A stretch of DNA of 64,000 nucleotides from Hyphomicrobiales bacterium (lineage in GTDB: Bacteria; Pseudomonadota; Alphaproteobacteria; Rhizobiales; Xanthobacteraceae): NCBI GenBank assembly GCA_013911975.1, contig JACESF010000018.1, forward strand, positions 453-64,452, read 5' to 3'. The translations under genes and the position numbers were made by a program. The notes under the pieces were generated by a model. It was not told the origin of the DNA and ran no database searches. It was given only the letters and a program-made list of their open reading frames with translations. This document shows positions 49,247 to 64,000 of this stretch, piece by piece. The stretch's first letter is position 1; each line of letters opens with the position of its first letter.

Positions 49247-50019
49247 CCGCCCTCGCCCGCTTCGCGCGGCAGAATGTCGGCTGGGCCCTGCCCATCCTGC
49301 TGCTGGCGGGATGGGAGGTGGCCGCGCGCCTCGGCGAGATCCCCAAGAACATCCTGCCCGCCCCGTCGGACGTCGCCGCCGCGCTCTGGAAGCTCACCGT
49401 CTCGGGCGAGATCTTCCGGCATATCGGCGTCTCCTCCTGGCGGGCCCTCACGGGCTTTGCCATCGGCGGGTCCATCGGCTTCGTGCTGGGGCTCGCCAAC
49501 GGCCTCTCGGAGGCGAGCCGCGCGGTCTCCGATACCACGCTCCAGATGGTGCGCAACATTCCGCACCTCGCCCTCATCCCGCTGGTCATCCTGTGGTTCG
49601 GCATCGATGAGGAAGCCAAGCTCTTCCTGGTGGCGCTGGGCGTGTTCTTCCCCATCTACATCAACACGCTGCACGGCATCCGCACGGTGGACCCGCACCT
49701 CATCGAGATGGGACGGATCTACGGCATGTCGCGCCTCGCGCTGTTCGTGAAGGTGATCCTGCCCGGCGCCCTGCCCTCCATCTTCGTGGGCCTGCGCTAC
49801 GCGCTCGGCATCATGTGGCTGACGCTGATCGTGGCGGAAACCATCTCGGCCTCGTCGGGCCTCGGCTACATGGCCATGCAGGCGCGCGAGTTCCTGCTCA
49901 TCGAGGTGGTGGTCCTGTCCATCCTCATCTACGCGCTCCTCGGCAAGCTGGCGGACAGCGCCGCCCGCCTGCTGGAGCGCGTGTTCCTCAAATGGCACCC
50001 CGCCTTCCAGACCCAGTGA
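49243..50019 (+). CDS. ssuC: Sulfonate ABC transporter permease
   Basis: ATGA overlap with ssuD. EAA-loop-containing 6-TM permease ([19 protein letters not shown]). Confidence 0.88.
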
Positions 50020-50028
50020 GGTGAGCCC

Positions 50029-50877
50029 ATGACCATCGCCCTTCGCGACGCGCCATCCGCCTTCAGCCCCAATGTCCGGTTCGAGGGCGCGCCCTTCAAT
50101 GCGGCGGGCCTCCGCGAGGCGGCGCCCGTCGTCGGACGGGAGGGCGGCGCGGCCTTCTCCCTCAAGGGCGTGCGCAAGGACTTCGGCCGGAAGACCGTGC
50201 TGCACGGGCTCGACCTGCGGGTGAAGGCGGGCGAGTTCGTGGCGGTCATCGGCAAGAGCGGATGCGGCAAGAGCACCCTGCTGCGGCTTCTCACCGGGCT
50301 GGAGGCGCCCAGCGCCGGCGAGATCACCTTCGAGGCGGGCGGCACCAGGGACGCGGCGCGGCTGACGCGCGTGATGTTCCAGGAACCGCGCCTGCTGCCC
50401 TGGGCGCGGGTGGCGGCCAATGTGGAGGTGGGCCTGTCCCATCTGCGCTCCAAGGCCGAGCGGCGGCAGACCGCTTTGTCCCTTCTGGCGGATGTGGGTC
50501 TGGCGGACCGGGCGGGGGAATGGCCTTCCGTCCTCTCCGGCGGCCAGCGCCAGCGGGTGGCGCTGGCGCGCGCGCTGGCCAGCCGTCCGCGCATCCTCGC
50601 CCTGGACGAGCCCCTGGGCGCGCTGGATGCGCTGACCCGCATCGAGATGCAGCAATTGCTGGAGCGCATCTGGCTCCAGCAGGGCTTCACGGCGGTTCTC
50701 GTCACCCATGACGTGGCGGAGGCGGTGGCCCTGGCCGACCGGGTGGTTCTGGTGGAGGAAGGTCGCATCGCCCTCGACCTGGACATCCCGCTGCCCCGTC
50801 CCCGTCGGCGCGGCTCGCCCGAACTGGCGCGGCTGGAAGGCACGATCCTGGAGACGCTCCTGGGCAATGCCGCCTGA
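50029..50877 (+). CDS. ssuB: Sulfonate ABC transporter ATP-binding protein
   Basis: [26 protein letters not shown] and [12 protein letters not shown]. About 45-aa N-terminal extension before the ATPase core. Confidence 0.88.
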
Positions 50878-51018
50878 GACGCGGGCGGCGTGAGCCTTCC
50901 GCGCGGGGTTTCGCCCCTGCCGGGCGGCGCCCGTGCGGGCTTCAAACGGGCGGCGGATTGGGCTAATCGGCCCTGGCGGCGGGCCTTCCGCCGCGCCTTC
51001 CCGCAGGGGCGCCGCGCC

Positions 51019-51915
51019 ATGACCCTGAGCTTCACCGGCCTTTCCGCCTTCCCGCCGACCCCGGCCGATGCCGAAGGCATTGTCAACGTGGACGCCCTCG
51101 CCCTGCTGGTGGACCGGCTCGCCGGGACCGGGCCGACCTCCATCGGCCTCCTGGGCAGCACCGGCATCTATGCCTATCTCGACCGCGCCGAGCGCAAGCG
51201 GGCCGTGGCGGCGGCGGTGGAGGCGGCCGCCGGGCGGGTTCCGGTGATGGTCGGCATCGGCGCGCTGCGGACCTCCTGGGCCCGCGACCTCGCGCGGGAT
51301 GCCGAAGCCGCCGGGGCGGCGGGCCTTCTCCTGGCGCCCGTGTCCTACACGCCGCTCACCCAGGACGAGGCGGAACAGCATTACCGCGCGGTGTCCGGCG
51401 CCACGGCGCTGCCGCTCTGCATCTACAACAATCCCGGAACCACCGGCTTCCGCTTCACCCCGGACCTGATCGGGCGGCTCGCCGCCCTGCCCCGGGTGGC
51501 CGCCATCAAGATGCCGCTTCCGGCGGACGGGGATTGCGCCGGCGAGTTGCGCACGCTGCGCGGCCTCGTGCCGGACCACTTCGCCATCGGCTATAGCGGC
51601 GACTGGGGCGCGGCGCCCGCGCTGCTGGCGGGCGCCGCGGCCTGGTATTCGGTGGTGGCGGGCCTGCTGCCCGGCCCGGCCCTGCGGCTGACCCGCGCGG
51701 CCCTCGCGGGGCAGGCGGAGGAGGCGGCGGCCCTCGATGCCGCCTTCGCGCCGCTCTGGGCGCTGTTCCGCGCCCATGGCAGCCTGCGCGTCATGTATCT
51801 GGTGGCGGACCGGCTGGGCCTTCCGGTGGGCGATCCGCCGCTGCCGCTGCGGCGGCCGGGGGCGGACGTGACGCGGGAGGTGGAGGCGGCGCTGGACCGG
51901 CTCTCGGCTCTCTGA
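51019..51915 (+). CDS. Dihydrodipicolinate synthase/N-acetylneuraminate lyase (DapA) family protein
   Basis: ATG at 51019. GLLGSTGIYAYLDRAERKR, VMVGIG, YNNPGTTG and the putative Schiff-base Lys context AAIKMP. Confidence 0.75.
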   Translation: MTLSFTGLSAFPPTPADAEGIVNVDALALLVDRLAGTGPTSIGLLGSTGIYAYLDRAERKRAVAAAVEAAAGRVPVMVGIGALRTSWARDLARDAEAAGAAGLLLAPVSYTPLTQDEAEQHYRAVSGATALPLCIYNNPGTTGFRFTPDLIGRLAALPRVAAIKMPLPADGDCAGELRTLRGLVPDHFAIGYSGDWGAAPALLAGAAAWYSVVAGLLPGPALRLTRAALAGQAEEAAALDAAFAPLWALFRAHGSLRVMYLVADRLGLPVGDPPLPLRRPGADVTREVEAALDRLSAL

Positions 51916-51922
51916 GGCCCTC

Positions 51923-52546
51923 TCAGGCGGGCAGAAGCCGCGCCGCGAGCGAGGCCGCCAGCGCCAGCATGACGACGCCCACCAGCGCGTCCAGCACACG
52001 CCACGCGGCGGGGCGGGTGAAGACCGGCTGCAGCAGCCGGGCGCCGTAGCCCAGGGCGGCGAACCAGGTGAAGCTGGCGGTGGCGGCGCCCGCCACGAAG
52101 GCGGGGCGCAGCGCGTCGGGCTGGGCGGAGCCCGCGGCCCCCATCAGGAGCACCGTGTCCAGGTAGACATGGGGATTGAGCAGGGTGAAGCCGGCGGTGG
52201 CCGCGAGCGCGCGGGCCAGCGTCACACCGCCCTGGCCCTCGATCACCATGGCCTCGCCCGAAGCGAGCCGGCGCAGCGCCGTGACGCCGTGCCAGCCGAG
52301 AAAGGCCGCGCCCCCGGCCGCGAGCAGCGCGGTGAGCTGCGGGACGGCCGCGAGGACGGTGCCCGCGCCCCACACGCCCGCCAGGATCAGGAGTGCGTCG
52401 GCCAGCCCGCAGAACAGCACGATGGGCCCCACATGCTCGCGCCGCAGCCCTTGGCGCAGCACGAACAGGTTCTGGGCGCCGATGGCCATGATGAGTGCCG
52501 CCGAGAGCAGGAAGCCGGTGGCGAAGGACAGGAGGAGGTCGGTCAT
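51923..52546 (-). CDS. argO: LysE/ArgO-family basic amino acid exporter
   Basis: 207 aa, 6 TM. AIGAQNLFVLRQG..REH and NPHVYLDTVLL.G are hallmarks. Divergent from the argP-like gene. Confidence 0.8.
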   Translation of the reverse strand: MTDLLLSFATGFLLSAALIMAIGAQNLFVLRQGLRREHVGPIVLFCGLADALLILAGVWGAGTVLAAVPQLTALLAAGGAAFLGWHGVTALRRLASGEAMVIEGQGGVTLARALAATAGFTLLNPHVYLDTVLLMGAAGSAQPDALRPAFVAGAATASFTWFAALGYGARLLQPVFTRPAAWRVLDALVGVVMLALAASLAARLLPA

Positions 52547-52619: not shown

Positions 52620-53507
52620 ATGCTCGACTATGCGTCCCTGTCCGCCGTCGCCGCCGTGGTGCGGGAAGGCACGTTCGAGCGGGCCGCGTCCGCGCTCGGC
52701 ATCACGCCGTCCGCCGTCTCCCAGCGGGTGCGCGGGCTGGAGGAACGGCTGGGCGCCATCCTCATCGTGCGCGGGGCGCCCTGTACGCCCACGGAACTGG
52801 GGCGCACGCTCTGTGCCCATCTCGACCGGGTTCGGTTGCTGGAGCATGACCTCGCCCCCGTCCTCGGCCCCGCCGCCGGGGCGGCCCCCCACCTGACCCT
52901 GCGCGTGGCGGTGAATGCCGACAGCCTCGCCACCTGGTTCCCCGGCGCGGCGGCCGCCTTCGCGCGGGCGGGAGGGGCCTGCCTCGATCTGGCGCTGGAC
53001 GACGAGGCCCACACCGCCGAGCGCCTGCGCACCGGGGAGGTGCTGGCGGCCGTCAGCGCCGATCGAGATCCCGTGCAGGGATGCCGGACCCTTCCCCTGG
53101 GATCGCTGCGCTATGCCGCCTGCGCGAGCCCGGATTTCCACGCGCGCCATTTCGCCGGGGGCGTCGATGCACTGGCCCTCGGCCGCGCGCCGCACCTGCG
53201 CTTCGACCGCCGCGACCAACTCCAGGCGCGCTGGGCGCGGGAGGCGCACGACGTGGCGCTCGCAGGCCCCGTCCATTGGGTGCCCTCGGCCCAGGGCTTT
53301 CTCGACATGGCGCTGGCGGGGGTTGGCTGGGGCCTCCAACCTCTGGCCCTGGCGGCGCCGCTTCTGGCGGCCGGGCGCCTCGTGGAATTGGCGCCGGGGC
53401 ACCGTGTGGACGTGGCGCTGTACTGGACCTTCGCCCGCCTGCACGCGACGCCCCTGCGCCGCCTGAGGGAGGCGGTGCGCGCCGCCGCGCGGGCGGCGCT
53501 GGCGTGA
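52620..53507 (+). CDS. argP: LysR-family regulator, ArgP/IciA/LysG-like
   Basis: MLDYASLSAVAAVVREGTFERAASALGITPSAVSQRVRGLEERLG parallels the E. coli ArgP N-terminus. The gene pairs with argO. Confidence 0.75.
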   Translation: MLDYASLSAVAAVVREGTFERAASALGITPSAVSQRVRGLEERLGAILIVRGAPCTPTELGRTLCAHLDRVRLLEHDLAPVLGPAAGAAPHLTLRVAVNADSLATWFPGAAAAFARAGGACLDLALDDEAHTAERLRTGEVLAAVSADRDPVQGCRTLPLGSLRYAACASPDFHARHFAGGVDALALGRAPHLRFDRRDQLQARWAREAHDVALAGPVHWVPSAQGFLDMALAGVGWGLQPLALAAPLLAAGRLVELAPGHRVDVALYWTFARLHATPLRRLREAVRAAARAALA

Positions 53508-53511
53508 TCGC

Positions 53512-54492
53512 CTACCGGGCGCCCGCCGCCTCCGCCGCGCCGAACTTCTCCCGGTAGTCCTGCGGGCTCACGCCGAGCCGCCGCCGGAAGGCCCGGCGCA
53601 TGCGCTCCTCGTCCACGAAGCCGCAGCGCGTGGCGATTTCCTTGATGCTCTGCCGGGTTTCCTCCAGCGCGCGGCGCGCCGCGTCCACCCGCAATTCCTC
53701 CACCACCTTGGCCGGGGTGCGGCCGGTGCGGGCGGCATAGAGGCGCGCGAAGGTGCGCGGGCTCATGGAGGCCCGCTCCGCCAGGGTTTCCACCCGCAGG
53801 TCGTCGGCGAGATGGTCGCCGATCCAGCGGTGCAGCGCCTCGAAGTCGCCGTCGTCCGCCTCCTGAAGGGCGAGGGGCACGCTGAACTGGGTCTGGCCCC
53901 CGGCGCGCTTAAGGAAGACCACGAGGCGCTTCGCCACGCGGATCGCCTCCGCATGGCCGCGATCGTCCTCGATGAGGGCCAGCGCCAGGTCGATCCCGGC
54001 CGTGACGCCCGCCGACGTCCAGACCGGGCCGTCCCGCTCATAGATCGCGTCCGGCGAGACGGTGAGGCCGGGATACCGGTCCTGGAGCAGCTTGCAGGAG
54101 CCCCAATGGGTCACGACCCGCCGCCCTTCCAGCAGGCCCGCGGCGGCGAGCACGAAGGTGCCGGTGCAAACCGAGCATATCCGGCGGGCGCGTGTCGCGC
54201 AGGCGGACAGCCAGTCCAGCAGCCCCCGCTCGGCCGCCGCCTCGTGGACGCCGGGGCCGCCGACCACCACCAAGGTGTCCACCTCGTCGAGGGCACCGAG
54301 CGGCTGGGTCATCAACTCCAGGCCGGACGAAGTGCGCACCAGCCCTCCGGTGACCGAGGCGACCGTGAGCCGGTACGGCGGAGGCTCCCGGCCCGCCGTC
54401 TCGCAGGACAGCTCGAAGGCCGCAAGCGGGCCCGAGAGGTCGAGCAGCAGCGCCTTGGGAAACACCACGAAGACCACGTGACGCTGAGGCAC
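53512..54492 (-). CDS. GlxA-type AraC regulator (N-terminal DJ-1/PfpI-like domain + AraC HTH)
   Basis: GTG at 54492, 6 nt after GGAGGGAG. VVFVVFPKALLLDLSGP, ICSVCTGTFVLAAAGLL, TSAGVTAGIDLALALIE and C-terminal ...IATRCGFVDEERMRRAFRR. The track ORF extends a further 128 codons upstream, which I reject. Confidence 0.85.
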   Translation of the reverse strand: MPQRHVVFVVFPKALLLDLSGPLAAFELSCETAGREPPPYRLTVASVTGGLVRTSSGLELMTQPLGALDEVDTLVVVGGPGVHEAAAERGLLDWLSACATRARRICSVCTGTFVLAAAGLLEGRRVVTHWGSCKLLQDRYPGLTVSPDAIYERDGPVWTSAGVTAGIDLALALIEDDRGHAEAIRVAKRLVVFLKRAGGQTQFSVPLALQEADDGDFEALHRWIGDHLADDLRVETLAERASMSPRTFARLYAARTGRTPAKVVEELRVDAARRALEETRQSIKEIATRCGFVDEERMRRAFRRRLGVSPQDYREKFGAAEAAGAR

Positions 54493-54601
54493 GCGACACT
54501 CCCTCCGGCAGTCGGGGATGTGGCAGGAAAGGAGGGTAGAATGTCGTTTCCGCCTGCTCGTGTCATGCACAAAATCGCCTTCAGAAAAGACGGAGGCGTC
54601 C

Positions 54602-55309
54602 TTGAGCAAAGCAAATTTGGAAATCGGTCTGCTGTTCTTCCCGGGGATGACGCAGCTCGATGTAACCGGGCCTTTTGAAGTCCTGGCGCGTCTTCCTGGC
54701 GTGCGGATGCATCTGCTTTGGAAGCGGATCGAACCCATCACGAGCGATGTCGGCCTCACCCTGATGCCGACCACCACTTTCGCGGACTGCCCGGACCTCG
54801 ACGTCATCTGCGTCGGCGGCGGGCCGGGCCAGATGGCGCTCATGGATGACCAGGAGGTGCTGGACTTCGTGGCCAAGGCGGGCGCGCGGGCGCGCTACGT
54901 GACCTCGGTCTGCGCGGGCTGCTTCATCCTGGCGGGCGCGGGCCTCTTGGACGGCTACCGCTCCGCCTGCCACTGGCTGTCCCGCGACCAGCTCTCCGTC
55001 CTCGGGGCGATCCCGGTGGCCGAGCGGATCGTGGTGGACCGCAACCGCATCTCCGGCGGCGGCGTGACGGCGGGCATCGACTTCGCCTTCCAGCTCGCGG
55101 CAGAACTGTGCGGCGATGACGTGGCCCAGCGCCTCCAGCTCATGCTGGAATACGATCCCAAGCCGCCCTTCGACATTTCCGAGACGACCGCTCCGCCCGA
55201 AATGCTGGCGCAGATCCGGGCCGCTGCGCGTCCGCTGCTGGAGGAGCGCCTGCGCTCCAGCCAGCGCGCGGTCGCGCGGCTGCGCGGCGGCCAAGCGGGA
55301 GCCGCGTGA
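54602..55309 (+). CDS. DJ-1/PfpI-family enzyme, isocyanide (isonitrile) hydratase-like
   Basis: TTG start at 54602, 5 nt after GGAGG. It aligns with the paralogue N-terminus (SKANLEIGLLFFPGMTQLDVTGP vs PKPLKFGFLVFPRITQLDMTGP). TTTFADCPDLDVICVGGG, VTSVCAGCFILAGAGLL, GGGVTAGIDFAF and LEYDPKPPF. Confidence 0.8.
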   Translation: MSKANLEIGLLFFPGMTQLDVTGPFEVLARLPGVRMHLLWKRIEPITSDVGLTLMPTTTFADCPDLDVICVGGGPGQMALMDDQEVLDFVAKAGARARYVTSVCAGCFILAGAGLLDGYRSACHWLSRDQLSVLGAIPVAERIVVDRNRISGGGVTAGIDFAFQLAAELCGDDVAQRLQLMLEYDPKPPFDISETTAPPEMLAQIRAAARPLLEERLRSSQRAVARLRGGQAGAA

Positions 55310-56373
55310 TGGCGCCGCGGATCTCGCGCACCGAGGCGGACGGCCAGAGCATCTATCGGTTCGAGGATCCCGCCAGCGCCCTTTCCGGCGCCGTCGTGGT
55401 GGATTCGCTGGCGCTCGGCCCGGCCACGGGCGGATGCCGCTTCTGGCACTACGAGGACGAGGCGAGCCTGCTCGCCGACGCCCGCCGCCTCGCGCGCGGC
55501 ATGAGCTACAAGAACGCCATGGCGGGGCTCCCGCTGGGCGGCGGCAAGTCCGTCATCCGCCGCCCCGCCGGGCCGTTCGACCGGGAGGCGCTGTTCAGCG
55601 CCTTCGGGCAGGTGCTGGACGCGCTGAAGGGCGAATATCTCGCCGCCGAGGACGTGGGCACCACCACCGCCGACATGGCGGTGGCGCGCGCGCAGACCCC
55701 CTTCGTCCTCGGGCTTCCGGCGCACGGCGAGAAGGCGGGAGGCGATCCCTCGCCCTGGACCGCGCTCGGCGTATTCCTCTGCATCGAGCATGTTCTGGCC
55801 CGCCGGGAAATCCCGCTCGCCGGAAGCCGCATTGCCGTTCAGGGACTGGGCAATGTGGGCCGCGACCTCTGCCGCCGCCTGCATGCGGCGGGCGCGCGCC
55901 TGGTGGTGGCCGATGTCCATGCGGACGCGGTCGCGCGGCTGCTTGCCGAGGTGCCGGCGGATGTGATGGCGCCGGACGCGATCCATCGCGCCGTGGCTGA
56001 TCTCTACGCGCCCTGCGCGCTCGGCGCGGGGCTGAACGCGCGGACCATTCCGGACATGGCGGCGCCGCTCGTGGCGGGGGCCGCGAACAACCAGCTTGAG
56101 ACGCCCGAGGACGGCGAGCGCCTGCAGGGCCGGGGCATCCTTTATGTGCCCGATTACGTGGCCAATGCGGGGGGCATCATCAATGTGGCGGCGGAGTATC
56201 TGGGGGATGACGCGCTGGCGGTCGGCGAGCGGGTCGGCCGGATTCCGGCGCGGCTTGCGGGCGTCCTGGACCGGGCCGAGGCGTCGGGGACGCCGCCCGT
56301 CCGGGTGGCCGACGCCATGGCGCGCGAGCTGATCGCCGCCGCGTCCCTCCCGTCCATGCGCAGCGCCGGATAG
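55306..56373 (+). CDS. Glu/Leu/Phe/Val-family NAD(P)-dependent amino acid dehydrogenase
   Basis: GTGATG overlaps the DJ-1 stop. GGCRFW, KNAMAGLPLGGGKSVI (catalytic Lys), the dinucleotide fold VQGLGNVGRDL, and GAANNQL. Confidence 0.85.
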   Translation: MMAPRISRTEADGQSIYRFEDPASALSGAVVVDSLALGPATGGCRFWHYEDEASLLADARRLARGMSYKNAMAGLPLGGGKSVIRRPAGPFDREALFSAFGQVLDALKGEYLAAEDVGTTTADMAVARAQTPFVLGLPAHGEKAGGDPSPWTALGVFLCIEHVLARREIPLAGSRIAVQGLGNVGRDLCRRLHAAGARLVVADVHADAVARLLAEVPADVMAPDAIHRAVADLYAPCALGAGLNARTIPDMAAPLVAGAANNQLETPEDGERLQGRGILYVPDYVANAGGIINVAAEYLGDDALAVGERVGRIPARLAGVLDRAEASGTPPVRVADAMARELIAAASLPSMRSAG

Positions 56374-56481
56374 CAGGCCGCGCGAACCGATCGCGCACCC
56401 TGCCGTCCATGGCAGGAAACGAGGGAAAACGGCCATTGTAGGCGATCGCCACGGAGCGCAAGCTTCGGTGGAAGACCAGAG

Positions 56482-56515
56482 GACGGCCCGCACTTTCATC
56501 GCGTCGCGGGCCGTC
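56482..56515 (+). terminator. GC-rich hairpin after the dehydrogenase gene (weak terminator/attenuator candidate)
   Basis: gacggcccgc (56482-91) / gcgggccgtc (56506-15) with a 14-nt loop. Followed by ttcc only, with no real T-run. Confidence 0.3.
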
Positions 56516-56565
56516 TTCCAAACCATCCAAGAAGCCGCAAAGCGGCTCGCAGGGGAACCACTTCA

Positions 56566-57819
56566 ATGATGCAGGACCGGACCATGCCGCACCGGAGACG
56601 CTTTCGCACACTCCTTGCTTCCGCCGCCGGCGCGCTGGGCGCGCTGGCCCTGACGGCGGGAATAGCCGCCGCCGACATTTCCGACGGCGTCATCAAGATC
56701 GGCGTCATCAACGACCAGTCCGGCCCGCTCTCCGACCTGTCCGGCCGGGGATCCGTGGTGGCCGCGAAGCTGGCCGTGGAAGACTTCAAGAAGATCGACC
56801 CGAACGTGAAGGTCGAGCTTCTGGTGGCGGACCACCAGAACAAGCCGGACGTGGGCGCGCAGGTGGTGCGCCGCTGGTTCGGCGCCGACGGCGTCGACAT
56901 GGTGGTGGACGTCGGCAATTCGGCGGTGGCGCTGGCCATCCAGGCCATCGGCAAGGAGAAGAACAAGCCGGTCATCTATTCGGCGGTGGGCACGGTGGAG
57001 ATCACCGGCAAGCAGTGCGCCCCCACCGGCCTCGCCTGGCTGCACGACAATTACAATCTCGTCGCCGGTCCCATCCGCAAGCTGGTGGGGCAGGGGCAGG
57101 ACAAGTGGTACTTCATCGCCGCCGACTATGCGTTCGGGCGCAACATGGTGGCGGAATCCGAACGCATGCTGAATTCCGTGGGCGGCAAGTCCATGGGCGC
57201 GGTGTTCCATCCGCTCGGCACGGGCGACTATTCCTCCTTCCTGCTGCAGGCCCAGAGCTCGGGCGCGAAGGTGGTGGCGTTCGCCAACGCGGGCGAGCAG
57301 CTCGTCTCCTCCATCAAGCAGTGGAACGAGTTCAACATGGGCGCCGGCCAGACGCCGGTGGCGCTCCTCATGTTCCTCACCGACGTGCACGGCATGGGCC
57401 CGGAAATGGCCAAGGGGCTGACCACGGTCACGGCCTGGTACTGGGACCTGAACGACGACACGCGGGCCTTCGCCAAGCGCTTCTACGCGGAGCACAAGGC
57501 CATGCCCACGGCGCCCCAGGCCGCCGTCTATTCCGCCGTCTTCCACTATCTGAAGGCCGCCGCCGCCATTAAGTCCGACGACACCGACAAGGTGCTGGAG
57601 AAGATGCGCGCGACCCCCGTGGACGACTTCTACGCGCCCGGCGCGAAGCTCCGCGCCGACAACAAGCTCGTGCACGATTTCTACCTCGTGCAGGTGAAGG
57701 AGCCCAAGCAGGTGAAGCAGCCCTGGGCCTATTACGAGGTGCTGGAAAAGATCCCCGCGGACGTCGCCTACCGTCCCCTTAGCGAGAGCGAATGCCCGCT
57801 GGTGGCCAAGGCGAAATAG
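56566..57819 (+). CDS. Orphan periplasmic solute-binding protein, Leu/Ile/Val-binding superfamily
   Basis: Tat/Sec-like N-terminus HRRRFRTLLASAAGALGALALTAGIAAA. IKIGVINDQSGPLSDLSG, ADHQNKPD and YFIAADYAFG. No cognate permease or ATPase adjacent. Confidence 0.85.
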   Translation: MMQDRTMPHRRRFRTLLASAAGALGALALTAGIAAADISDGVIKIGVINDQSGPLSDLSGRGSVVAAKLAVEDFKKIDPNVKVELLVADHQNKPDVGAQVVRRWFGADGVDMVVDVGNSAVALAIQAIGKEKNKPVIYSAVGTVEITGKQCAPTGLAWLHDNYNLVAGPIRKLVGQGQDKWYFIAADYAFGRNMVAESERMLNSVGGKSMGAVFHPLGTGDYSSFLLQAQSSGAKVVAFANAGEQLVSSIKQWNEFNMGAGQTPVALLMFLTDVHGMGPEMAKGLTTVTAWYWDLNDDTRAFAKRFYAEHKAMPTAPQAAVYSAVFHYLKAAAAIKSDDTDKVLEKMRATPVDDFYAPGAKLRADNKLVHDFYLVQVKEPKQVKQPWAYYEVLEKIPADVAYRPLSESECPLVAKAK

Positions 57820-57846
57820 CCCGCGCAACCCGACACCGGAACCTTC

Positions 57847-57891
57847 GGCGGCTTCCTCCGGTCCTTCGGGCCCCGGGAGCCGCCGCTTTTT
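57847..57891 (+). terminator. Rho-independent terminator after the orphan SBP gene
   Basis: 10-bp stem ggcggcttcc (57847-56) / gggagccgcc (57875-84) followed by gcTTTTT. Confidence 0.55.
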
Positions 57892-57911
57892 CGCCCGCCC
57901 CGGAGCCGACC

Positions 57912-59432
57912 GTGCCGCAGCCTCAGTACGACCATCTCATCAAGGGCGGCCGCATCCTCGATCCCGCCACGGGCCGCGACGAGACGGCGGACGTGGGCAT
58001 CGCCGGGGGCGTGATCGCGCGCATCGGCGACATTCCCACCCGCGAGGGCGCCCGCGTGATCGACGCCTCGGGACGGGTGGTCTGCCCCGGCTTCATCGAC
58101 ATCCACGCCCATGGGCAGTCGGTGGCCGCCGACTGGATGCAGGCGTTCGACGGCGTGACCACGACCCTGGAGCTGGAAGTGGGCGTGCTGCCCGTGGAGG
58201 CCTGGTATGCCCGGCAGGAACGGGCCGGGCGCGCGCTCCATTACGGCGCGGCGGCGAGCTGGATCTTCGCGCGCAAGCAGGTGATGGCCGGCATGGCGCC
58301 GGACCCCGCCAAGCATTCCATGGAGATGATGGGGGAGGGGGCGGACGATCGCGGCGGGTGGTCGAGCGGCATCGCGAATGACGCGCAGGTGGCGGACATC
58401 GTCGCGATCCTCGCGCAGGGCCTGCGCGCCGGCGGCATCGGGATCGGCATCGCCCACGGCTACGCGCCGGGCGCGGGCATCAAGGAAATGACCCGGGTCT
58501 GCGACCTCGCGGCCGGCCGGGGCGTGCCGACCTTCACCCATATCGGCTTCATGGCCAATGCAGACCCGCGCAGTTCCGAAGACTCCTATGTCCGCATCAT
58601 CGGCCTCGCCGCCGCCACTGGTGCGCACATGCATATCTGCCACCTCAATTCCACCTCGCTCCAGGACATCCGGCGGTGCCGGCACCTGATCGAGCAGGCG
58701 CAGGCGCGCGGGCTTCCCGTGACGGTTGAGGCCTATCCCTACGGGACCGGCTCCACCGTAGTCTCGGCCAGCTTCTTTGCGGCGCCGGACTTTCCCGAGC
58801 GCACCGGCACCGGCTACGGCAGCATCGAGCTGATCCATTCGCGCCGCCACATGCGCGACCGCGATGACCTGCTGTCCGCCAGCGGCGCGGATCCCGCCGC
58901 GCTCGTGGCCTGGCATTTCCTCGACACGGCCCATGACGCGGCCCAGCAGGACCTGCTGGACCTGTCGGTGCTCTATCCCGGCGGCACCATCGCCTCAGAC
59001 GCCATGCCCTGGGTGGAGCCCGACGGGGCCCTCTATGGAGGGACGGAGTGGCCGCTGCCCGAGCGCCTGTCCTCCCACCCCCGGTCGGCGGCCACCTTCA
59101 CCAAGTTCATCGGCGAGTATCACCGCGCGCGCGGCCGGATCGGCCTCATGGAGGCGGTTGCCAAATGCACCATCCTGCCCGCCCGTGTGATCGAGGGCTG
59201 CGTGCCCGCCATGCGCCGGAAGGCGCGCCTCCAGGAGGGGTGCGACGCGGACGTGATCGTGTTCGATCCCGCCCGGATCGCGGGCGCGGCAAGCTTCGAG
59301 CGGATGACGGCCCCTGCGATCGGCGTGGAGGCGGTGCTGGTGGGCGGTGTCCCGCTCATCCTGGACGGCGTGCTCGACACGCAAGCCCGCCCCGGCCGCG
59401 CGCTGCGGGGCGCAGGCCATCCCGATGAATGA
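57912..59432 (+). CDS. Amidohydrolase-superfamily N-acyl-D-amino-acid deacylase (D-aminoacylase) family protein
   Basis: GTG at 57912 is the only start upstream of the conserved N-terminus YDHLIKGGRILDPATG...DVGIAGGVIARIGD. Metal motif PGFIDIHAHG. C-terminal DADVIVFDP...VLVGG. Confidence 0.8.
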   Translation: MPQPQYDHLIKGGRILDPATGRDETADVGIAGGVIARIGDIPTREGARVIDASGRVVCPGFIDIHAHGQSVAADWMQAFDGVTTTLELEVGVLPVEAWYARQERAGRALHYGAAASWIFARKQVMAGMAPDPAKHSMEMMGEGADDRGGWSSGIANDAQVADIVAILAQGLRAGGIGIGIAHGYAPGAGIKEMTRVCDLAAGRGVPTFTHIGFMANADPRSSEDSYVRIIGLAAATGAHMHICHLNSTSLQDIRRCRHLIEQAQARGLPVTVEAYPYGTGSTVVSASFFAAPDFPERTGTGYGSIELIHSRRHMRDRDDLLSASGADPAALVAWHFLDTAHDAAQQDLLDLSVLYPGGTIASDAMPWVEPDGALYGGTEWPLPERLSSHPRSAATFTKFIGEYHRARGRIGLMEAVAKCTILPARVIEGCVPAMRRKARLQEGCDADVIVFDPARIAGAASFERMTAPAIGVEAVLVGGVPLILDGVLDTQARPGRALRGAGHPDE

Positions 59433-60393
59433 CGGCGCCGTCCCGTCCGCCCCCGTGCCGGTGGTGCTGGTGGCGGGCGGCCTCGGCGCGGGCAAGACGA
59501 GCCTGATCAACGCCGTGCTGCGCGCCGACCACGGGATGGCGCTGGCCGTGGTGGTGAACGATTTCGGCGCCATCAATATCGACGAGGCGATCCTCTCCGC
59601 CACGGGCCTGCCGGTCTACGGGCTGAAGAACGGCTGCATCTGCTGCTCGCTCCAGGGCGACCTGCTGCGCACGCTGCGCCTGCTCCTGTCCGTGGGACGG
59701 CCTCTCGACGGCATCCTCATCGAGGCGAGCGGTGTCTCCGACCCGCGCGGTATCCTGGAGGCGCTGTGCGATCCCGTGCTCCGGGCTTCGGTGCGGCTCG
59801 ACGCGGTGGTGGGCGTGGTGGACGCGCAGGCGCACGATGCCTCCGACGACCTGTGGCGCGCCCAGGTGCGCGCCGCCGACATGGTGGTCCTGTCCAAGAC
59901 CGGCGCGGCCGATGCGGACGGGCTCGCGCGGCTGCGCGAGACGCTGGCCTCCATGGGCAAGGCCCTGGTGGTGACGGCCGACGCGGCGGGCGGCGTCCCG
60001 CCGGACCTGCTGTTCGGCGGCCGCATCCGGCGCCTGGCAGCCGAGGACGCCACCGGCGGCGCGCCGATCCGGGACGAGCGCTTCCTGCGGCTCGACTGGA
60101 CCTCCCCGGCGCCCCTCTTGCTGCCGCGCTTCCAGGCGGCCATCGAGGCATTGGCGCCGCAGCTCGCCCGGGCCAAGGGCTTCCTCGCCTTCGTCGAACG
60201 CCCGGGGGACGCCTTCCTGTTCCAGATGGTGGGCCGCCGCGCGAGCCTGGAGCCGGTCCGCCGCCCGGTGCAGGGCGCCGAGCTGGTGCTCATCGGCCCG
60301 CGGACGCAGTTCGATCCCGCGCGCGCCGCCGCAGTGCTGGACGCGGTGCGGGCCGCAGGGGGCGGCGATCCCCAGGGAAGCAGGCATGGCTGA
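59425..60393 (+). CDS. COG0523 (CobW/HypB/UreG-type) G3E GTPase metallochaperone
   Basis: ATG overlaps the deacylase stop (ATGAATGA). P-loop GGLGAGKTS, metal-binding GCICCS, IEASGVSDP and a CobW_C-like C-terminal domain. Confidence 0.85.
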   Translation: MNDGAVPSAPVPVVLVAGGLGAGKTSLINAVLRADHGMALAVVVNDFGAINIDEAILSATGLPVYGLKNGCICCSLQGDLLRTLRLLLSVGRPLDGILIEASGVSDPRGILEALCDPVLRASVRLDAVVGVVDAQAHDASDDLWRAQVRAADMVVLSKTGAADADGLARLRETLASMGKALVVTADAAGGVPPDLLFGGRIRRLAAEDATGGAPIRDERFLRLDWTSPAPLLLPRFQAAIEALAPQLARAKGFLAFVERPGDAFLFQMVGRRASLEPVRRPVQGAELVLIGPRTQFDPARAAAVLDAVRAAGGGDPQGSRHG

Positions 60394-61597
60394 CATCGCG
60401 ATTCTCGGCGCGGGCATGGTGGGGATCACCACCGCCCTCGCCCTCCAGGAGCGGGGCCATGCCTGCGTGGTCATCGACCGCGCGCCGCCGGGCAGGGAGA
60501 CCAGCTACGGCAATGCCGGGATCATCCAGGCGGAGGCGGTGGAGCCCTATGCGCTGCCCTCAAACCCGCTCGACATGCTGGCCCTGGCGCTGGGCCGGAA
60601 AAACGCCGTGTCGCTCCATTGGACGGCATTGAAGCAGGCGCCCGCGCTCGCCGCCTATTGGCGCACCTCGCTGCCCGGGCGGCTCGCCACGGTCATTCCC
60701 CTCTGGGCTGATCTGGTGCGCGAGGCGGTGCCGCGCCATGCGGCCCTCGTGGCGGCGGCGGGCGCGGAGGACCTGATCCGCAGGGACGGCTATTGGGAGG
60801 CCCACGGCACCGACGCCGGCCTTGCCGCCGCGCTTGGGGAGGCCGAGCGGCGCAGGCGGCACTACGGCCTGGACTTCACGCCGATGGACCGGGCCGCGCT
60901 CGCGCGCGCCGAGCCCTCTTTGTCGCGGTCCCTCGCGGGCGCGATCCACTGGACCGCGCCCTGGACCTGCCGCGCGCCGGGAGAATTGGTGGGCGCCTAT
61001 GCCCGGCTGTTCGAGCAGCGCGGCGGCCGTGTCGTGACCGGAGAGGCCCGTTCGCTCCGCCAGGCGGGCGCGGGCTGGGAGGTGGCGGGCGAGAGCGTGG
61101 AGCGGGTGGTGGTGGCCCTCGGACCCTGGGCGCCGGACCTGCTCGCCCCGCTCGGCTACCGCGTGCCCATGGTGCGCAAGCGGGGCTACCACCGACATTA
61201 TTTGGGCGCCCACGGGCTGAGCCGCCCCCTGCTCCTGGTGGATCATTCGGTGGTGCTGTCGCCCATGCGCCAGGGCCTGCGGATCGCCACGGCGGCAGAA
61301 CTCTCCGCCGCCGCGCCCAAGGACGATCCCCGCCAGCTCGCACGGGGCGAGGCGGCGGCGCGCACGCTGCTGCAGATCGGATTGCCCGTGGAGGAGACGC
61401 CCTGGTCCGGGACGCGCCCGTGCCTGCCGGGCATGCTGCCTTTGGTGTGCCCGGCGAAGCGGCACCACGGCCTCTGGTTCCATTTCGGCCACGGCCACCA
61501 GGGCTTCACCCTGGGGCCCGTGACCGCCGCGCGGCTTGCGCGGGCCATGGACGGCGACGTCGCCGCCGTCGCGGGGCTCGACCGCGGTGTCGCGTAG
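60386..61597 (+). CDS. FAD-dependent oxidoreductase, D-amino acid dehydrogenase/oxidase (DadA/DAO) family
   Basis: ATG overlaps the COG0523 gene end by 8 nt. ILGAGMVGITTALAL dinucleotide fold, SYGNAG and C-terminal GHGHQGFTLGP. Confidence 0.85.
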   Translation: MADIAILGAGMVGITTALALQERGHACVVIDRAPPGRETSYGNAGIIQAEAVEPYALPSNPLDMLALALGRKNAVSLHWTALKQAPALAAYWRTSLPGRLATVIPLWADLVREAVPRHAALVAAAGAEDLIRRDGYWEAHGTDAGLAAALGEAERRRRHYGLDFTPMDRAALARAEPSLSRSLAGAIHWTAPWTCRAPGELVGAYARLFEQRGGRVVTGEARSLRQAGAGWEVAGESVERVVVALGPWAPDLLAPLGYRVPMVRKRGYHRHYLGAHGLSRPLLLVDHSVVLSPMRQGLRIATAAELSAAAPKDDPRQLARGEAAARTLLQIGLPVEETPWSGTRPCLPGMLPLVCPAKRHHGLWFHFGHGHQGFTLGPVTAARLARAMDGDVAAVAGLDRGVA

Positions 61598-61601
61598 CAC
61601 G

Positions 61602-62288
61602 TCAGCCCAGGCGGGCGGCGGCCTGCCGGGCCAGCTCCAGCCGGTGCGCCTTTGCCGTCTTCATCCGTTCCTGGAGCAAGGCGAGGATCGCCGGCGGCGC
61701 GGTTTCCGGCGACCCCGCATTGAAAGGCGGGGCGGGATTGTATTCCAGGCGCAGCTGGATGGCCTCGGCGGCCGGGCGGTCCACCAGCTCGGCGATGACC
61801 GTGAGGCCGAGATCGATGCCCGCCGTGATGCCGCCGCCGGTGATGCGGTTGCCGTCGATGCAGACCCGCTCGCGGGAGACCGTGACGCCGAAGATGGGCA
61901 GCGCCTCCACGGCGCTCCAATGGGTGGCGGCGGTGTAGCCCTTCAGCAGGCCTGCCGCCGCGAGCACCAGCGAGCCCGTGCAGACCGAGGTCACAAAGGT
62001 GGCGCCGGCCGCCTGGGCCCGCAGGAAGTCCAGCACCTCGGCGTCGCCCATCAATTCGTCCGTGCCGTAGCCGCCGGGCACGCAGATCACGTCCAGTTGC
62101 GGGCAGTCGGCGAAGCTGGTGGTGGGGGTGACGGACAGGACGGTGTCGCTCGGCACCGGCTCGGTGGTCTTCCACACCAGATGGACCTCTGCACCCGCGA
62201 GGCTTGAAAACACCTGGAGCGGCCCGGTCATGTCGAGCTGGGTGATGCGCGGGAAGACGAGGAAACCGAACTTCAGGGGCTTGGGCAT
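61602..62288 (-). CDS. DJ-1/PfpI-family enzyme, isocyanide (isonitrile) hydratase-like (second paralogue)
   Basis: 228 aa. FGFLVFPRITQLDMTGP, TTSFADCPQLDVICVPGG, VTSVCTGSLVLAAAGLL, ATHW, TGGGITAGIDL and LEYNPAPPFNAGSPETAP match my recollection of Pseudomonas ICH/InhA closely. Confidence 0.85.
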   Translation of the reverse strand: MPKPLKFGFLVFPRITQLDMTGPLQVFSSLAGAEVHLVWKTTEPVPSDTVLSVTPTTSFADCPQLDVICVPGGYGTDELMGDAEVLDFLRAQAAGATFVTSVCTGSLVLAAAGLLKGYTAATHWSAVEALPIFGVTVSRERVCIDGNRITGGGITAGIDLGLTVIAELVDRPAAEAIQLRLEYNPAPPFNAGSPETAPPAILALLQERMKTAKAHRLELARQAAARLG

Positions 62289-62381
62289 TCTGGGGCCTTT
62301 TCATCCGACCTTGACCGGCCGAGCATGCCATGGTGCCATTTCAGCGGAAATGTCTCACTTCCCTCGTTTACGGACGCGCCC

Positions 62382-63320
62382 ATGATCGGCATCCTGGTGT
62401 TCCCGGATTTCCAGCTCCTGGATGCCTCCGGCCCGGCGTCCGTGTTCGAGATCGCGCGGCGCTTCGTGTCGAGCGCGCCCCAGGTGCGGATGATCGCCAC
62501 CCAGGCGGGGCCGGTGCGCTCCTCCTGCGGGGTGGAGGTTCTGGCATCGAGCCTGCGGGCGGCGGGCGGCGTGACGACGCTCATCGTCGCCGGGGGCATG
62601 GGCGTCGACGCGGCCACCGATTGCCGCACCACGCTCGCCTTCGTGCGCCGCCTCGCCCGGCGCGGCGTGCGGGTGGCGAGCGTGTGTTCCGGCGCCTATG
62701 TGCTGGCGGCGGCGGGGCTGCTGGATGGGCGCAAGGCCACCACCCATTGGTGCCGTACCCAGGATTTCGTCTCGCGCTATCCCAAGGTGAAGCTCGATCC
62801 CGACCGCATCTTCCTGCAGGAGGGCAATGTGTGGACCTCCGCCGGCATCACGGCGGGCATCGACCTCGCGCTCGCCATCGCCGCCGAGGATCACGGCGAC
62901 GCGGTGGCGAAGGACATCGCCTGCCAGCTCGTCCTCTACCATCGCCGCTCCGGGGGCCAGTCCCAGTTCTCCTCCCTGCTGGAGTTGAAGACGCCCAACG
63001 GCCGCTTCGGCCCTCTCCTGAGCTGGGTGCGGGAGCATCTGGACCAGCCGCTCACGGTGGAGATGCTCGCCGACCGGGCGGGGCTGAGCCCGCGCCACTT
63101 CGCCCGCGCCTTCACGTCGGAGACCGGCGCCACCCCGTCCAAGGCCATCGAGCGGCTGCGGCTGGAAGTGGCACGCGAGCAGGTGCAGTCCTCGGGCGAA
63201 CCCATCGAGCGGGTGGCGGAACGGACCGGCTTCGGAGACCCGGAGCGCATGCGCCGGGCCTTCGTGCGGGCCTTCGGCCAGCCGCCGCAAGGGATGCGGC
63301 GGGCGGTCCGCCGGAGCTAG
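62382..63320 (+). CDS. GlxA-type AraC regulator (second paralogue)
   Basis: ATG at 62382. IGILVFPDFQLLDASGP, VASVCSGAYVLAAAGLL, TSAGITAGIDLALAIA and the AraC HTH ...VAERTGFGDPERMRRAFVR. Confidence 0.85.
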   Translation: MIGILVFPDFQLLDASGPASVFEIARRFVSSAPQVRMIATQAGPVRSSCGVEVLASSLRAAGGVTTLIVAGGMGVDAATDCRTTLAFVRRLARRGVRVASVCSGAYVLAAAGLLDGRKATTHWCRTQDFVSRYPKVKLDPDRIFLQEGNVWTSAGITAGIDLALAIAAEDHGDAVAKDIACQLVLYHRRSGGQSQFSSLLELKTPNGRFGPLLSWVREHLDQPLTVEMLADRAGLSPRHFARAFTSETGATPSKAIERLRLEVAREQVQSSGEPIERVAERTGFGDPERMRRAFVRAFGQPPQGMRRAVRRS

Positions 63321-64000
63321 GGGCGGGCGGGCGCGGCGTTTATGGGCGCGGGGCCGCGCGCCAGCCGCAGGATGGCGTAGCCGCACAGGCCCGCCACGAG
63401 GGATCCGGCGAGGATGCCGTACTTCACCCGCACCTGCATGGCCGGGTCCTCGAAGGCCAGCATGCCGATGAACAGGCTCATGGTGAAGCCAATGCCGCAC
63501 AGGAAGGCGATGCCCAGCATCTGCGACCAGGAGGCATGCGCCGAAAGGTCCGAGAGGCGGCCCCGCACCATCAGCGCGACGGCGCCGAAAATCCCGATTA
63601 CCTTGCCAAACAGAAGCCCGGCGGCGACGCCCACGGACAAGGTGTCCGTCAGCACCGCCGGGGTGAGCGAGGCGAACGAGACGCCCGCATTGGCGAAGCC
63701 GAAGATGGGCAGGATGATGAAGGCCACGGGGCCCTGGAGCCCGTGCTCCAGGCGGTGGAGCGGGGAGGAATGGGCCGGCGCCTCGGGCTTCCCGGGCGTC
63801 AGGCGGATGGGGATGGTGAGCGCCAGCAGCACGCCGGCCACGGTGGCATGCACGCCCGAGAGCAGAACCAGCAGCCAGAGCACCGCGCCCAGCGCAAGAT
63901 AGACCGTCAGCCGGCCGTAATTGATGGCATTGAGGCCCGCCAGCGCGGCGAGGACGACGGCGGCACCCAGGAGCGCCTGGAAATTGATGTCGTAGGTATA
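63317..64000 (-). CDS. nhaA: Na+/H+ antiporter NhaA, C-terminal part (5' end beyond window)
   Basis: The frame stays open to base 64000 (the track shows only the part from an internal GTG). HATVAGVLLALTIP, LPIFGFANAGV and FLCGIGFTMSLFI are NhaA hallmarks. Confidence 0.85.
   Translation of the reverse strand, partial: YTYDINFQALLGAAVVLAALAGLNAINYGRLTVYLALGAVLWLLVLLSGVHATVAGVLLALTIPIRLTPGKPEAPAHSSPLHRLEHGLQGPVAFIILPIFGFANAGVSFASLTPAVLTDTLSVGVAAGLLFGKVIGIFGAVALMVRGRLSDLSAHASWSQMLGIAFLCGIGFTMSLFIGMLAFEDPAMQVRVKYGILAGSLVAGLCGYAILRLARGPAPINAAPARP

Follow-up and report, generated by a model that had tools for sequence, protein, structure and literature searches.

What is the physiological task of genes that are enclosed between two copies of a pair comprising a regulator gene and an isocyanide hydratase gene? 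Isocyanide hydratase (ICH), discovered in 2001, serves as a model enzyme for time-resolved crystallography, yet we know of no pathway context for it. A locus that bears on this question occupies positions 53512-63320 of the stretch studied here, a 64-kb segment (64,000 nt, referred to below as the window) of contig JACESF010000018.1 from a Hyphomicrobiales bacterium. Nine genes are present. Two encode AraC-family regulators of the GlxA type (RegA and RegB), two encode DJ-1 proteins assigned to the ICH clade (ICH-A and ICH-B), and the remaining five encode a leucine dehydrogenase (LeuDH)-like amino acid dehydrogenase (AADH), a periplasmic binding protein (SBP), a metal-dependent amidohydrolase (AMID), a GTPase of the COG0523 (CobW) family and a flavin-dependent oxidoreductase of the DAO family. 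The two divergent pairs lie in mirror orientation, with the regulators outside, the ICH genes inside and the five other genes enclosed. Coordinates and orientation agree with those in a preliminary description of the locus, and the identities proposed there for the enclosed genes were upheld by Pfam, NCBIfam and PDB matches. The nine genes very probably form one co-regulated unit.

Alignment of the intergenic regions between regulator and ICH genes from eleven genomes revealed a box common to the A-type and B-type promoters. The corresponding 27-nt pattern, GNCNGNAAANGAGGGNANNNNGNCNTT, has exactly three matches in the window, as compared with 0 expected and no match in 100 shuffles. They are found at 54522-54548 between RegA and ICH-A, at 56411-56437 upstream of the SBP operon, and at 62349-62375 between ICH-B and RegB, and all three are oriented alike relative to the gene that they precede. 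With a position weight matrix (PWM) built from the motif sites, the scores are 40.3 for motif A, 46.1 for motif S and 39.2 for motif B. When ~1.9 Mb of related loci were scanned (3.85 million positions, both strands), the high-scoring matches lay at 24-48 bits, whereas the 99.99th percentile was at 1.9. Sites at the regulator/ICH promoters are always 51-59 nt before the ICH start, or 75 nt in the case of Bradyrhizobium. The motif A site is kept in Aquabacter, Xanthobacter and Bosea, and the motif B site in all RegB/ICH-B pairs examined. The motif also occurs upstream of SBP orthologues in seven genera, namely Aquabacter (4 species), Xanthobacter, Azospirillum (A. oleiclasticum), Martelella, Acuticoccus, Bosea and Tistrella. 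In Mesorhizobium sp. YR577 (locus L093, 5513-8779), a site scoring 32 precedes genes for an M20 peptidase and an MFS transporter beside RegB/ICH-B, with neither SBP nor AMID present, and this gene pair may serve the same regulon as another kind of downstream module. A single PWM match fell outside these classes; it scores 25.2 bits and lies inside the region of the branched-chain keto acid dehydrogenase (BCKDH) genes of Martelella.

We infer that the box is the operator of the GlxA-type regulators. As the same box stands upstream of the SBP operon, this operon would be co-regulated with the ICH genes whether or not the box is that operator. A sigma-54 or EcfG-type promoter was considered and set aside, because the GGAAA-like and CATT/CGTT-like parts lie 13-14 nt apart, which by eye fits neither.

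Gene neighbourhoods were compared in 86 species, using the best 80 loci from an AMID profile scan of GTDB species genomes and further loci found by look-up. An ICH gene lies beside AMID in 12/12 species with an AMID at least 64% identical to that of the window and in 0/74 species with an AMID at most 60% identical. The corresponding counts are 11/12 versus 0/74 for an SBP orthologue, 8/12 versus 0/74 for AADH, 10/12 versus 10/74 for DAO, and 12/12 versus 72/74 for COG0523. In a neighbour-joining tree of the 86 sequences, the 12 AMIDs linked to ICH group together to the exclusion of all others. The anticipated co-occurrence of ICH genes with the AMID, COG0523 and DAO block was seen within this clade, and COG0523 tracks AMID with or without ICH.

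The order of the genes varies between genera. Aquabacter and Xanthobacter have the full mirror as in the window. In Azospirillum oleiclasticum the order is ICH-B(-) RegB(+) SBP AMID COG0523 DAO, and in two other Azospirillum species it is SBP(-) RegB(-) ICH-B(+) followed by a LuxR-type gene and then AMID COG0523 DAO. Martelella has AADH, SBP, a LIV-type ABC transporter and an M20 peptidase, an AsnC-type gene, AMID-COG0523-DAO convergent with ICH-B/RegB, and BCKDH genes. The latter, four in number (E1 alpha, E1 beta, E2 and E3), directly adjoin RegB in Martelella soudanensis (L086, 15430-20400), which fits a substrate with a branched-chain carbon skeleton. Two Acuticoccus species carry an ICH-AMID-COG0523 operon under a divergent regulator, with gaps between ICH and AMID of 15 nt in A. 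sediminis and 23 nt on a plasmid of A. sp. I52.16.1. The genes have stayed together in at least four different arrangements, which argues for selection. The functional link between the ICH genes and the enclosed block, which had been a guess in the preliminary description, is supported by the motif at the three promoters and by clade-specific synteny that survives rearrangement.

The mirrored bracket did not prove to be the functional unit. In Bosea, the same mirror encloses ICH-A, AADH, LivFGHM-type ABC transporter genes and SBP, with no AMID, COG0523 or DAO, and in Azospirillum, Martelella and Acuticoccus AMID is accompanied by ICH-B/RegB without the RegA/ICH-A pair. ICH-B/RegB occurs alone in Bradyrhizobium and Mesorhizobium and with SBP only in Tistrella. 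The set of RegA, ICH-A and AADH was found only in Aquabacter, Xanthobacter and Bosea. RegB, ICH-B and SBP are the widespread core, and RegA, ICH-A and AADH a lineage-specific addition. The bracket seems to have been built by successive accretion of modules, first a regulator with an ICH, next SBP, after that a transporter or the amidohydrolase set, and last a second unit of regulator, ICH and dehydrogenase.

Other genes were noted in these loci. The LuxR/GerE-type helix-turn-helix gene between ICH-B and AMID in Azospirillum is located at ~9050-9886 in L012 and at ~6700-7560 in L028. The plasmid of Acuticoccus sp. I52.16.1 (80 kb) carries, ~6 kb from ICH-AMID-COG0523, an acetamidase/formamidase-family gene (L094, 971-1891) with ABC transporter genes beside it.

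ICH-B matches Pseudomonas fluorescens ICH (PDB 3NON) over its full length (query residues 5-227) with 54% identity and an E value of 7e-74, and ICH-A likewise (query residues 34-258) with 53% identity and an E value of 3e-71. In ICH, Cys101 is the nucleophile in the elbow and Asp17 is the general acid/base (PMC12570138). Both columns are invariant in an alignment of the P. fluorescens enzyme, ICH-A, ICH-B and five orthologues, as is the C-terminal extension LEYxPxPPF. ICH-B further keeps Thr102 and Ile152. The Gly150-Ile152 segment, where the mobile helix starts, reads GGGITAGID in ICH-B and GGGVTAGID in ICH-A, and Val is also found in several ICH-B orthologues. All five ICH/InhA sequence motifs listed in the preliminary description were thereby recovered in both DJ-1 proteins; of the Cys/Asp/Thr triad, Cys101 and Asp17 are present in both, and Thr102 is present in ICH-B and replaced by Ala in ICH-A. 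The resulting Cys-Ala-Gly elbow (TSVCAG, 54902-54919) is shared by all six members of the ICH-A orthologue group (the window, L006, L007, L009, L010 and L090). The PDB includes the sequence of a T102S variant of ICH (3NOR). Lakshminarasimhan et al. are said to have found in 2010 that the Thr102 position tolerates mutation. Ala102 is not taken as disqualifying ICH-A. Both proteins can be placed in the ICH clade, and hydration of isonitriles (R-NC) by them is predicted.

The ICH-A stop codon overlaps the AADH start in every genome with this pair, i.e. the window, Aquabacter cavernae, A. sediminis, A. spiritensis, Xanthobacter and Bosea, as judged from the junction sequences for the window, Aquabacter and Xanthobacter and from gene calls for Bosea. 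ICH-B orthologues with 70-90% identity are present in Aquabacter, Xanthobacter, Azospirillum, Martelella, Acuticoccus, Bosea, Tistrella, Mesorhizobium and Bradyrhizobium.

RegA contains the Pfam domains DJ-1_PfpI, HTH_18 and HTH_AraC, and RegB contains DJ-1_PfpI and HTH_18. The NCBIfam FtrA model scores 258 bits for RegA and 237 bits for RegB against a cut-off of 425, and the GbdR model 136 and 124 bits against a cut-off of 480, so that both proteins fall below the equivalog level and appear to share with FtrA and GbdR the domain architecture only. In the PDB, the sensor domain of RegB matches ICH itself best (E 4e-28). The sensor domain of RegA is 32% identical to ICH-A and RegB is 36% identical to ICH-B, with the equivalents of the catalytic Asp and Cys kept in both. 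Sensor domains with these residues might bind the ligands of the enzymes or even react with them covalently. A counterpart was found in Pseudomonas sp. PH1b (L097), which has an ICH 96% identical to the crystallised enzyme, a divergent GlxA-type regulator 46% identical to RegB and, beside the start codon of the regulator (7900-8010), a box related to the motif, CGTAATTCGAGGG. Given the presence of the same unit in Pseudomonas, the combination of regulator, operator and ICH appears to be older than the split between Alpha- and Gammaproteobacteria.

AMID scores 651 bits against NCBIfam PRK09061 (NF006560; cut-off 340) and matches Pfam Amidohydro_3 (PF07969) with an E value of 6e-25. Among solved structures it is closest to D-aminoacylase 1M7J (1e-29) and N-acyl-D-glutamate deacylase 3GIP (1e-26). 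A likeness to NfdA had been suggested on the strength of the family; the 59 PDB matches to AMID at E <= 1e-3 do not include 3ICJ, the relative of NfdA with a solved structure, and this part of the suggestion fell. The chemistry invoked in that connection is in order, NfdA being listed among PF07969 members together with the D-aminoacylases (PMC13081988). Residues H65, H67, H210, H239/H241/H244 and D363 are invariant in 15 sequences and align with those of 1M7J, while the metal ligand Cys96 of 1M7J is replaced by Val, which adjoins invariant Glu residues. AMID is proposed to be an N-formyl amino acid deformylase. Between the ICH-linked AMID clade and the 74 relatives only three distinguishing positions were seen, residues 149 (Gly for Arg), 234 (Ala for Gly) and 466 (Thr for Asn), and the difference at residue 149 adjoins an indel and depends on the alignment.

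The COG0523 protein matches PF02492 (cobW, 9e-43) and PF07683 (CobW_C, 1e-11), has the Walker A sequence GGLGAGKTS and the CxCC metal motif in the form GCICC, and falls below the CobW and ZigA equivalog cut-offs. Its gene follows AMID in 84/86 species loci whether ICH is present or not, and the two usually overlap or abut where gene calls exist. They look like a dedicated pair of client and metallochaperone. Few bacterial COG0523 clients are known (PMC11672702). DAO scores 174 bits with the Pfam DAO model and shows a weak likeness to the NCBIfam D-amino acid dehydrogenase subfamily (107 bits, cut-off 383). A RidA-DAO-aminotransferase-AMID-COG0523 operon in Pararhodobacter that includes no ICH indicates that AMID and DAO are coupled independently of ICH.

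AADH consists of the Pfam domains ELFV_dehydrog_N and ELFV_dehydrog. It matches leucine dehydrogenases 6ACF, 1LEH and 8GXD with E values of 1e-80 to 1e-83 (1e-75 to 1e-83 for LeuDH overall), as compared with 2e-64 for tryptophan dehydrogenase, 4e-46 for phenylalanine dehydrogenase and 2e-19 or weaker for glutamate dehydrogenases. It is closer to LeuDH than to phenylalanine or glutamate dehydrogenases, and a LeuDH-like activity is predicted. SBP belongs to Pfam Peripla_BP_6 (316 bits), and its best PDB match (2e-92) is 3I09, a structural-genomics entry deposited as 'branched-chain amino acid-binding protein'. SBP orthologues with 69-89% identity accompany ICH-B/RegB in most genera surveyed.

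The presence of ICH, an AMID from an N-acyl deacylase family, a DAO that travels with AMID, a LeuDH-like enzyme, a LIV-type SBP and, in Martelella, BCKDH genes points to a substrate with an amino acid-like skeleton and a masked nitrogen. It is proposed, at about an even level of confidence, that the unit would function in capture, detoxification and assimilation of amino acid-derived isonitriles (alpha-isocyano acids, e.g. valine isocyanide) or of their N-formyl hydration products. Three transcription units, ICH-A with AADH, SBP-AMID-COG0523-DAO, and ICH-B, would share one operator-like motif under the GlxA-type regulators. SBP would hand the compound over to an ABC importer whose genes lie elsewhere in the genome, and the cytoplasmic ICH enzymes would hydrate R-NC to the N-formyl compound by means of Cys101 and Asp17. 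AMID, metallated by its COG0523 partner, would then remove formate. DAO would oxidise the freed (D-)amino acid or amine to a 2-oxo acid, and the LeuDH-like enzyme would interconvert the branched-chain 2-oxo acid and the L-amino acid. We infer each catalytic step, the substrate, the stereochemistry and the motif-binding protein from sequence comparison.

The chain, in which an isocyano acid is hydrated to an N-formyl amino acid, deformylated to an amino acid with release of formate, and converted via a 2-oxo acid to an L-amino acid, is chemically coherent and has natural precedents. Alpha-isocyano acids occur in nature: fungal CrmA makes (S)-2-isocyanoisovalerate (valine isocyanide), which inhibits bacteria and hydrates to N-formylvaline (PMC9381783). 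The ICH homologues Rv0052 of Mycobacterium and SfaF of Streptomyces hydrate natural isonitriles (PMC8872721), and ICH is considered protective against isocyanide natural products (PMC10792529).

A stronger version of the proposal appears doubtful. It holds that the genes constitute a dedicated regulon for sensing, detoxifying and assimilating amino acid-derived isonitrile natural products, e.g. the fungal antibiotic valine isocyanide, in which three features are combined. A catalytically competent, ICH-derived sensor domain would detect the isonitrile, possibly via a covalent Cys thioimidate; the D-aminoacylase-type AMID with its own COG0523 metallochaperone would be a new kind of formamide deformylase; and the Ala102 paralogue ICH-A, translationally coupled to the LeuDH-like enzyme, would differ in its substrates or products.

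Several points weigh against assimilation of isonitriles by a co-regulated unit. The motif could be a promoter element of an alternative sigma factor rather than the operator of the regulators. Because the 12 AMIDs form one clade, their association with ICH may have had a single origin followed by transfer, and the events would not be fully independent. The Bosea mirror and the pairs of Tistrella, Bradyrhizobium and Mesorhizobium, all without AMID, indicate that AMID is not obligatory. AMID itself is ~25% similar to characterised D-aminoacylases and distant from every characterised enzyme, and it is not close to NfdA, the one known formamide deformylase. A D-aminoacylase-type AMID and a DAO would be odd if the substrate were L-configured, and the one known natural alpha-isocyano acid is L-configured. 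No LIV-type permease or ATPase genes are present in the locus.

The main alternative is a regulon for salvage of N-acyl or N-formyl D-amino acids or of D-amino acid peptides, in which the DJ-1 proteins would be otherwise employed (as an amidase, in detoxification of electrophiles or glyoxal, or on a reactive intermediate) and isocyanide hydration would be a side activity in vitro. Such a regulon would account for the AMID-COG0523 pairs in 72/74 loci that include no ICH, as in Phyllobacterium, where the pair belongs to a Dpp/Opp-type peptide transporter operon that also encodes a beta-lactamase-fold protein and MlrC, and in the RidA-DAO-aminotransferase operon of Pararhodobacter. It also agrees with the D-aminoacylases as the nearest solved relatives of AMID and with the M20 peptidase that accompanies the cluster in Martelella and Acuticoccus. 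Characterised regulators of the GlxA-type architecture (GbdR and relatives) sense small N-methylated amino compounds, and GbdR is among the weaker NCBIfam matches of RegA and RegB. However, the DJ-1 proteins are 53-54% identical over the full length to the crystallised ICH with the catalytic Asp and Cys intact, and neither has the His that follows the nucleophilic Cys in PfpI-type amidases. Moreover, ICH is strictly specific to one AMID clade, which suggests a specialised substrate class and not general D-amino acid salvage. Salvage of this kind is considered unlikely, though a serious competitor.

Two other explanations have much less probability. If an isonitrile metallophore were recycled, the imported chalkophore or zincophore would have its ligands hydrated by ICH to free the metal, which COG0523 would receive. 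Rv0052 and SfaF hydrate di-isonitrile lipopeptide metallophores, and Rv0052 is induced in low zinc (PMC8872721); the presence of a COG0523 gene in the locus would suit this role. But COG0523 tracks AMID and not ICH, and since it follows AMID regardless of ICH it looks like the chaperone of AMID. The gene lists of the loci contain no Zur-type regulator gene and no metal transporter gene, and the LeuDH-like enzyme, the LIV-type SBP and the BCKDH neighbours point to amino acid carbon skeletons, which leaves recycling improbable. Regulator-ICH pairs that stand alone in Bradyrhizobium, Mesorhizobium and Pseudomonas, and the frequency of GlxA/DJ-1 pairs in Proteobacteria, would allow the pairs to be stand-alone modules of isonitrile defence that adjoin an unrelated amino acid catabolic operon by accident. 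This is highly improbable in view of the third motif site, which precedes the SBP operon and is kept in seven genera, the 12/12 versus 0/74 split for ICH, the translational coupling of ICH-A to the dehydrogenase through the stop/start overlap, and the ICH-AMID-COG0523 operon of Acuticoccus.

The proposed isonitrile assimilation unit can be compared with several known systems. The window proteins resemble InhA of P. putida N19-2 and ICH of P. fluorescens in their 53-54% full-length identity, Asp17, Cys101, GGG(I/V)TAGID and LEYxPxPPF, and the Pseudomonas genes have the same divergent GlxA-type regulator and a related promoter box. Unlike Pseudomonas, the window has two diverged paralogues, of which ICH-A has Ala102 and is translationally coupled to the LeuDH-like gene, and its genes sit in what appears to be a multi-operon regulon with uptake and downstream catabolic genes. 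Full-text literature searches, of incomplete coverage, returned no description of such a multi-operon context for Pseudomonas ICH, no ICH-containing catabolic cluster, and nothing combining ICH with GlxA/AraC regulators, leucine dehydrogenase or D-aminoacylase.

The route described by the Kobayashi laboratory, in which isonitrile hydratase is followed by NfdA of Arthrobacter pascens, has the same reactions as proposed here (R-NC to R-NH-CHO, then to R-NH2 and formate), and its second enzyme is likewise a PF07969 metal amidohydrolase (PMC13081988). AMID differs in belonging to the D-aminoacylase branch (PRK09061), not the NfdA/3ICJ branch, and in having a dedicated COG0523 partner; in addition, a single organism has both steps clustered and apparently under common control in the window, and further steps follow. 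With the D-aminoacylases of A. faecalis (1M7J) and Bordetella (Bb3285, 3GIP), AMID has in common the Amidohydro_3 fold, the HxH/His/His/Asp positions and the association with a flavoenzyme resembling D-amino acid dehydrogenase, but it is distant from them (E 1e-26 to 1e-29) and has Val where 1M7J has Cys96. As is proposed for the ICH proteins here, Rv0052 and SfaF are ICH-family enzymes that take a natural isonitrile as substrate in a physiological system dedicated to it (PMC8872721). They serve a metallophore of the producer itself, whereas the partners in the window are catabolic, and the genes listed for the retrieved loci (+/-10 kb) include no isonitrile synthase. RegA and RegB share with GATase1-like/AraC regulators of the GbdR, CdhR and FtrA type the DJ-1/GATase1-like sensor, two AraC helix-turn-helix motifs and divergent transcription from the target; they differ from these in scoring below the FtrA and GbdR cut-offs and in a sensor domain that is closest to ICH and keeps the catalytic Asp and Cys.

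For the first two steps, the chemistry is already known from separate organisms and enzymes. New are the integrated, co-regulated gene set, the use of another amidohydrolase branch with a COG0523 partner, the regulators with ICH-like sensors and their motif, and the Ala102 paralogue coupled to a dehydrogenase. The locus and its relatives would supply a context for ICH, consisting of a conserved regulator with an operator-like motif and a co-regulated SBP. In one clade, an amidohydrolase and dehydrogenases acting downstream would lead the N-formyl product into central metabolism. This suggests how Alphaproteobacteria of soil and rhizosphere might resist or feed on isonitrile antibiotics of fungi and bacteria. 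The near-universal AMID-COG0523 pair is a candidate client/chaperone pair in a family with very few known clients (PMC11672702), and in the regulators an enzyme may have given rise to a sensor domain with its catalytic residues preserved.

The gene set (Table 1) combines a listing of open reading frames (ORFs) with Pfam and NCBIfam matches and with the genes called on nearly identical contigs from the same species, of which L002 and L004 are 100% identical and L001 is 95-100% identical in the proteins compared. The closest genome record is the metagenome-assembled GCA_040754015.1, and the nearest named relatives are Aquabacter and Xanthobacter. The AMID start was set by the gene calls; a longer version of the ORF encodes 546 aa, and a search for identical sequences gave no match to it.

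Table 1. Genes and operator-like motifs of the ICH locus, with positions in the window.
Feature	Position	Strand	Details
RegA, GlxA/FtrA-like AraC-family regulator with ICH-like (DJ-1) sensor domain	53512-54492	-	326 aa, GTG start; L001 gene call also 326 aa
Operator-like motif A, GTGGCAGGAAAGGAGGGTAGAATGTCGTTTCC	54520-54551	+	51 nt upstream of ICH-A start, 28 nt from RegA start
ICH-A, putative isocyanide-hydratase-clade DJ-1 protein	54602-55309	+	235 aa, TTG start
AADH, LeuDH-like NAD(P) amino acid dehydrogenase	55309-56373	+	354 aa
Operator-like motif S, ATGGCAGGAAACGAGGGAAAACGGCCATTGTA, in AADH-SBP gap	56409-56440	+	144 nt upstream of SBP start
SBP, periplasmic binding protein of LIV/Peripla_BP_6 type	56584-57819	+	411 aa, N-terminal signal-like segment
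AMID, metal-dependent amidohydrolase, PRK09061/D-aminoacylase branch	57912-59432	+	506 aa, GTG start
COG0523 (CobW-family) GTPase	59425-60393	+	322 aa
DAO-family FAD-dependent oxidoreductase	60386-61597	+	403 aa
ICH-B, putative isocyanide-hydratase-clade DJ-1 protein	61602-62288	-	228 aa
Operator-like motif B, GCGTCCGTAAACGAGGGAAGTGAGACATTTCC	62346-62377	-	58 nt upstream of ICH-B start, 5 nt from RegB start
RegB, GlxA/FtrA-like AraC-family regulator with ICH-like sensor domain	62382-63320	+	312 aa

The overlap of the ICH-A stop and the AADH start has the sequence TGATG. AMID and COG0523, and COG0523 and DAO, overlap by 8 nt each. The gap between AADH and SBP is 210 nt, and DAO and ICH-B are convergent with 4 nt between their stop codons. 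ICH-A and ICH-B are 49% identical and RegA and RegB 44% identical, in line with the old duplication with paralogues roughly half identical that had been estimated by eye. At the DNA level, the two ends of the locus match only in stretches of 88 nt (75%) and 63 nt (76%) located at the most conserved codons. These short patches, together with the 44-49% protein identity, rule out an insertion sequence (IS)-type or recent inverted duplication.

No known RNA element was detected in the 5' regions with Rfam at gathering thresholds. A sigma-70 consensus scan gave 0 promoters, and 4 terminator-like sites were found against 2.9 expected for intrinsic terminators; since the genome has a G+C content of ~72%, these consensus scans are uninformative. 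Anti-phage defence families were also considered and rejected, there being no PADLOC match for the ICH proteins, AMID, COG0523 or DAO.

On the left, the locus is flanked by genes for a LysR-type regulator (52620-53507), a divergent LysE/ArgO-type exporter (51923-52546) and a DHDPS-family protein (50890-51915), and farther out by candidate ABC permease and ATPase ORFs (48976-50877 in the ORF listing). On the right, an NhaA-type antiporter gene (63317-63883) is convergent on RegB with a 4-nt overlap. The flanking neighbours on both sides are also found in L001.

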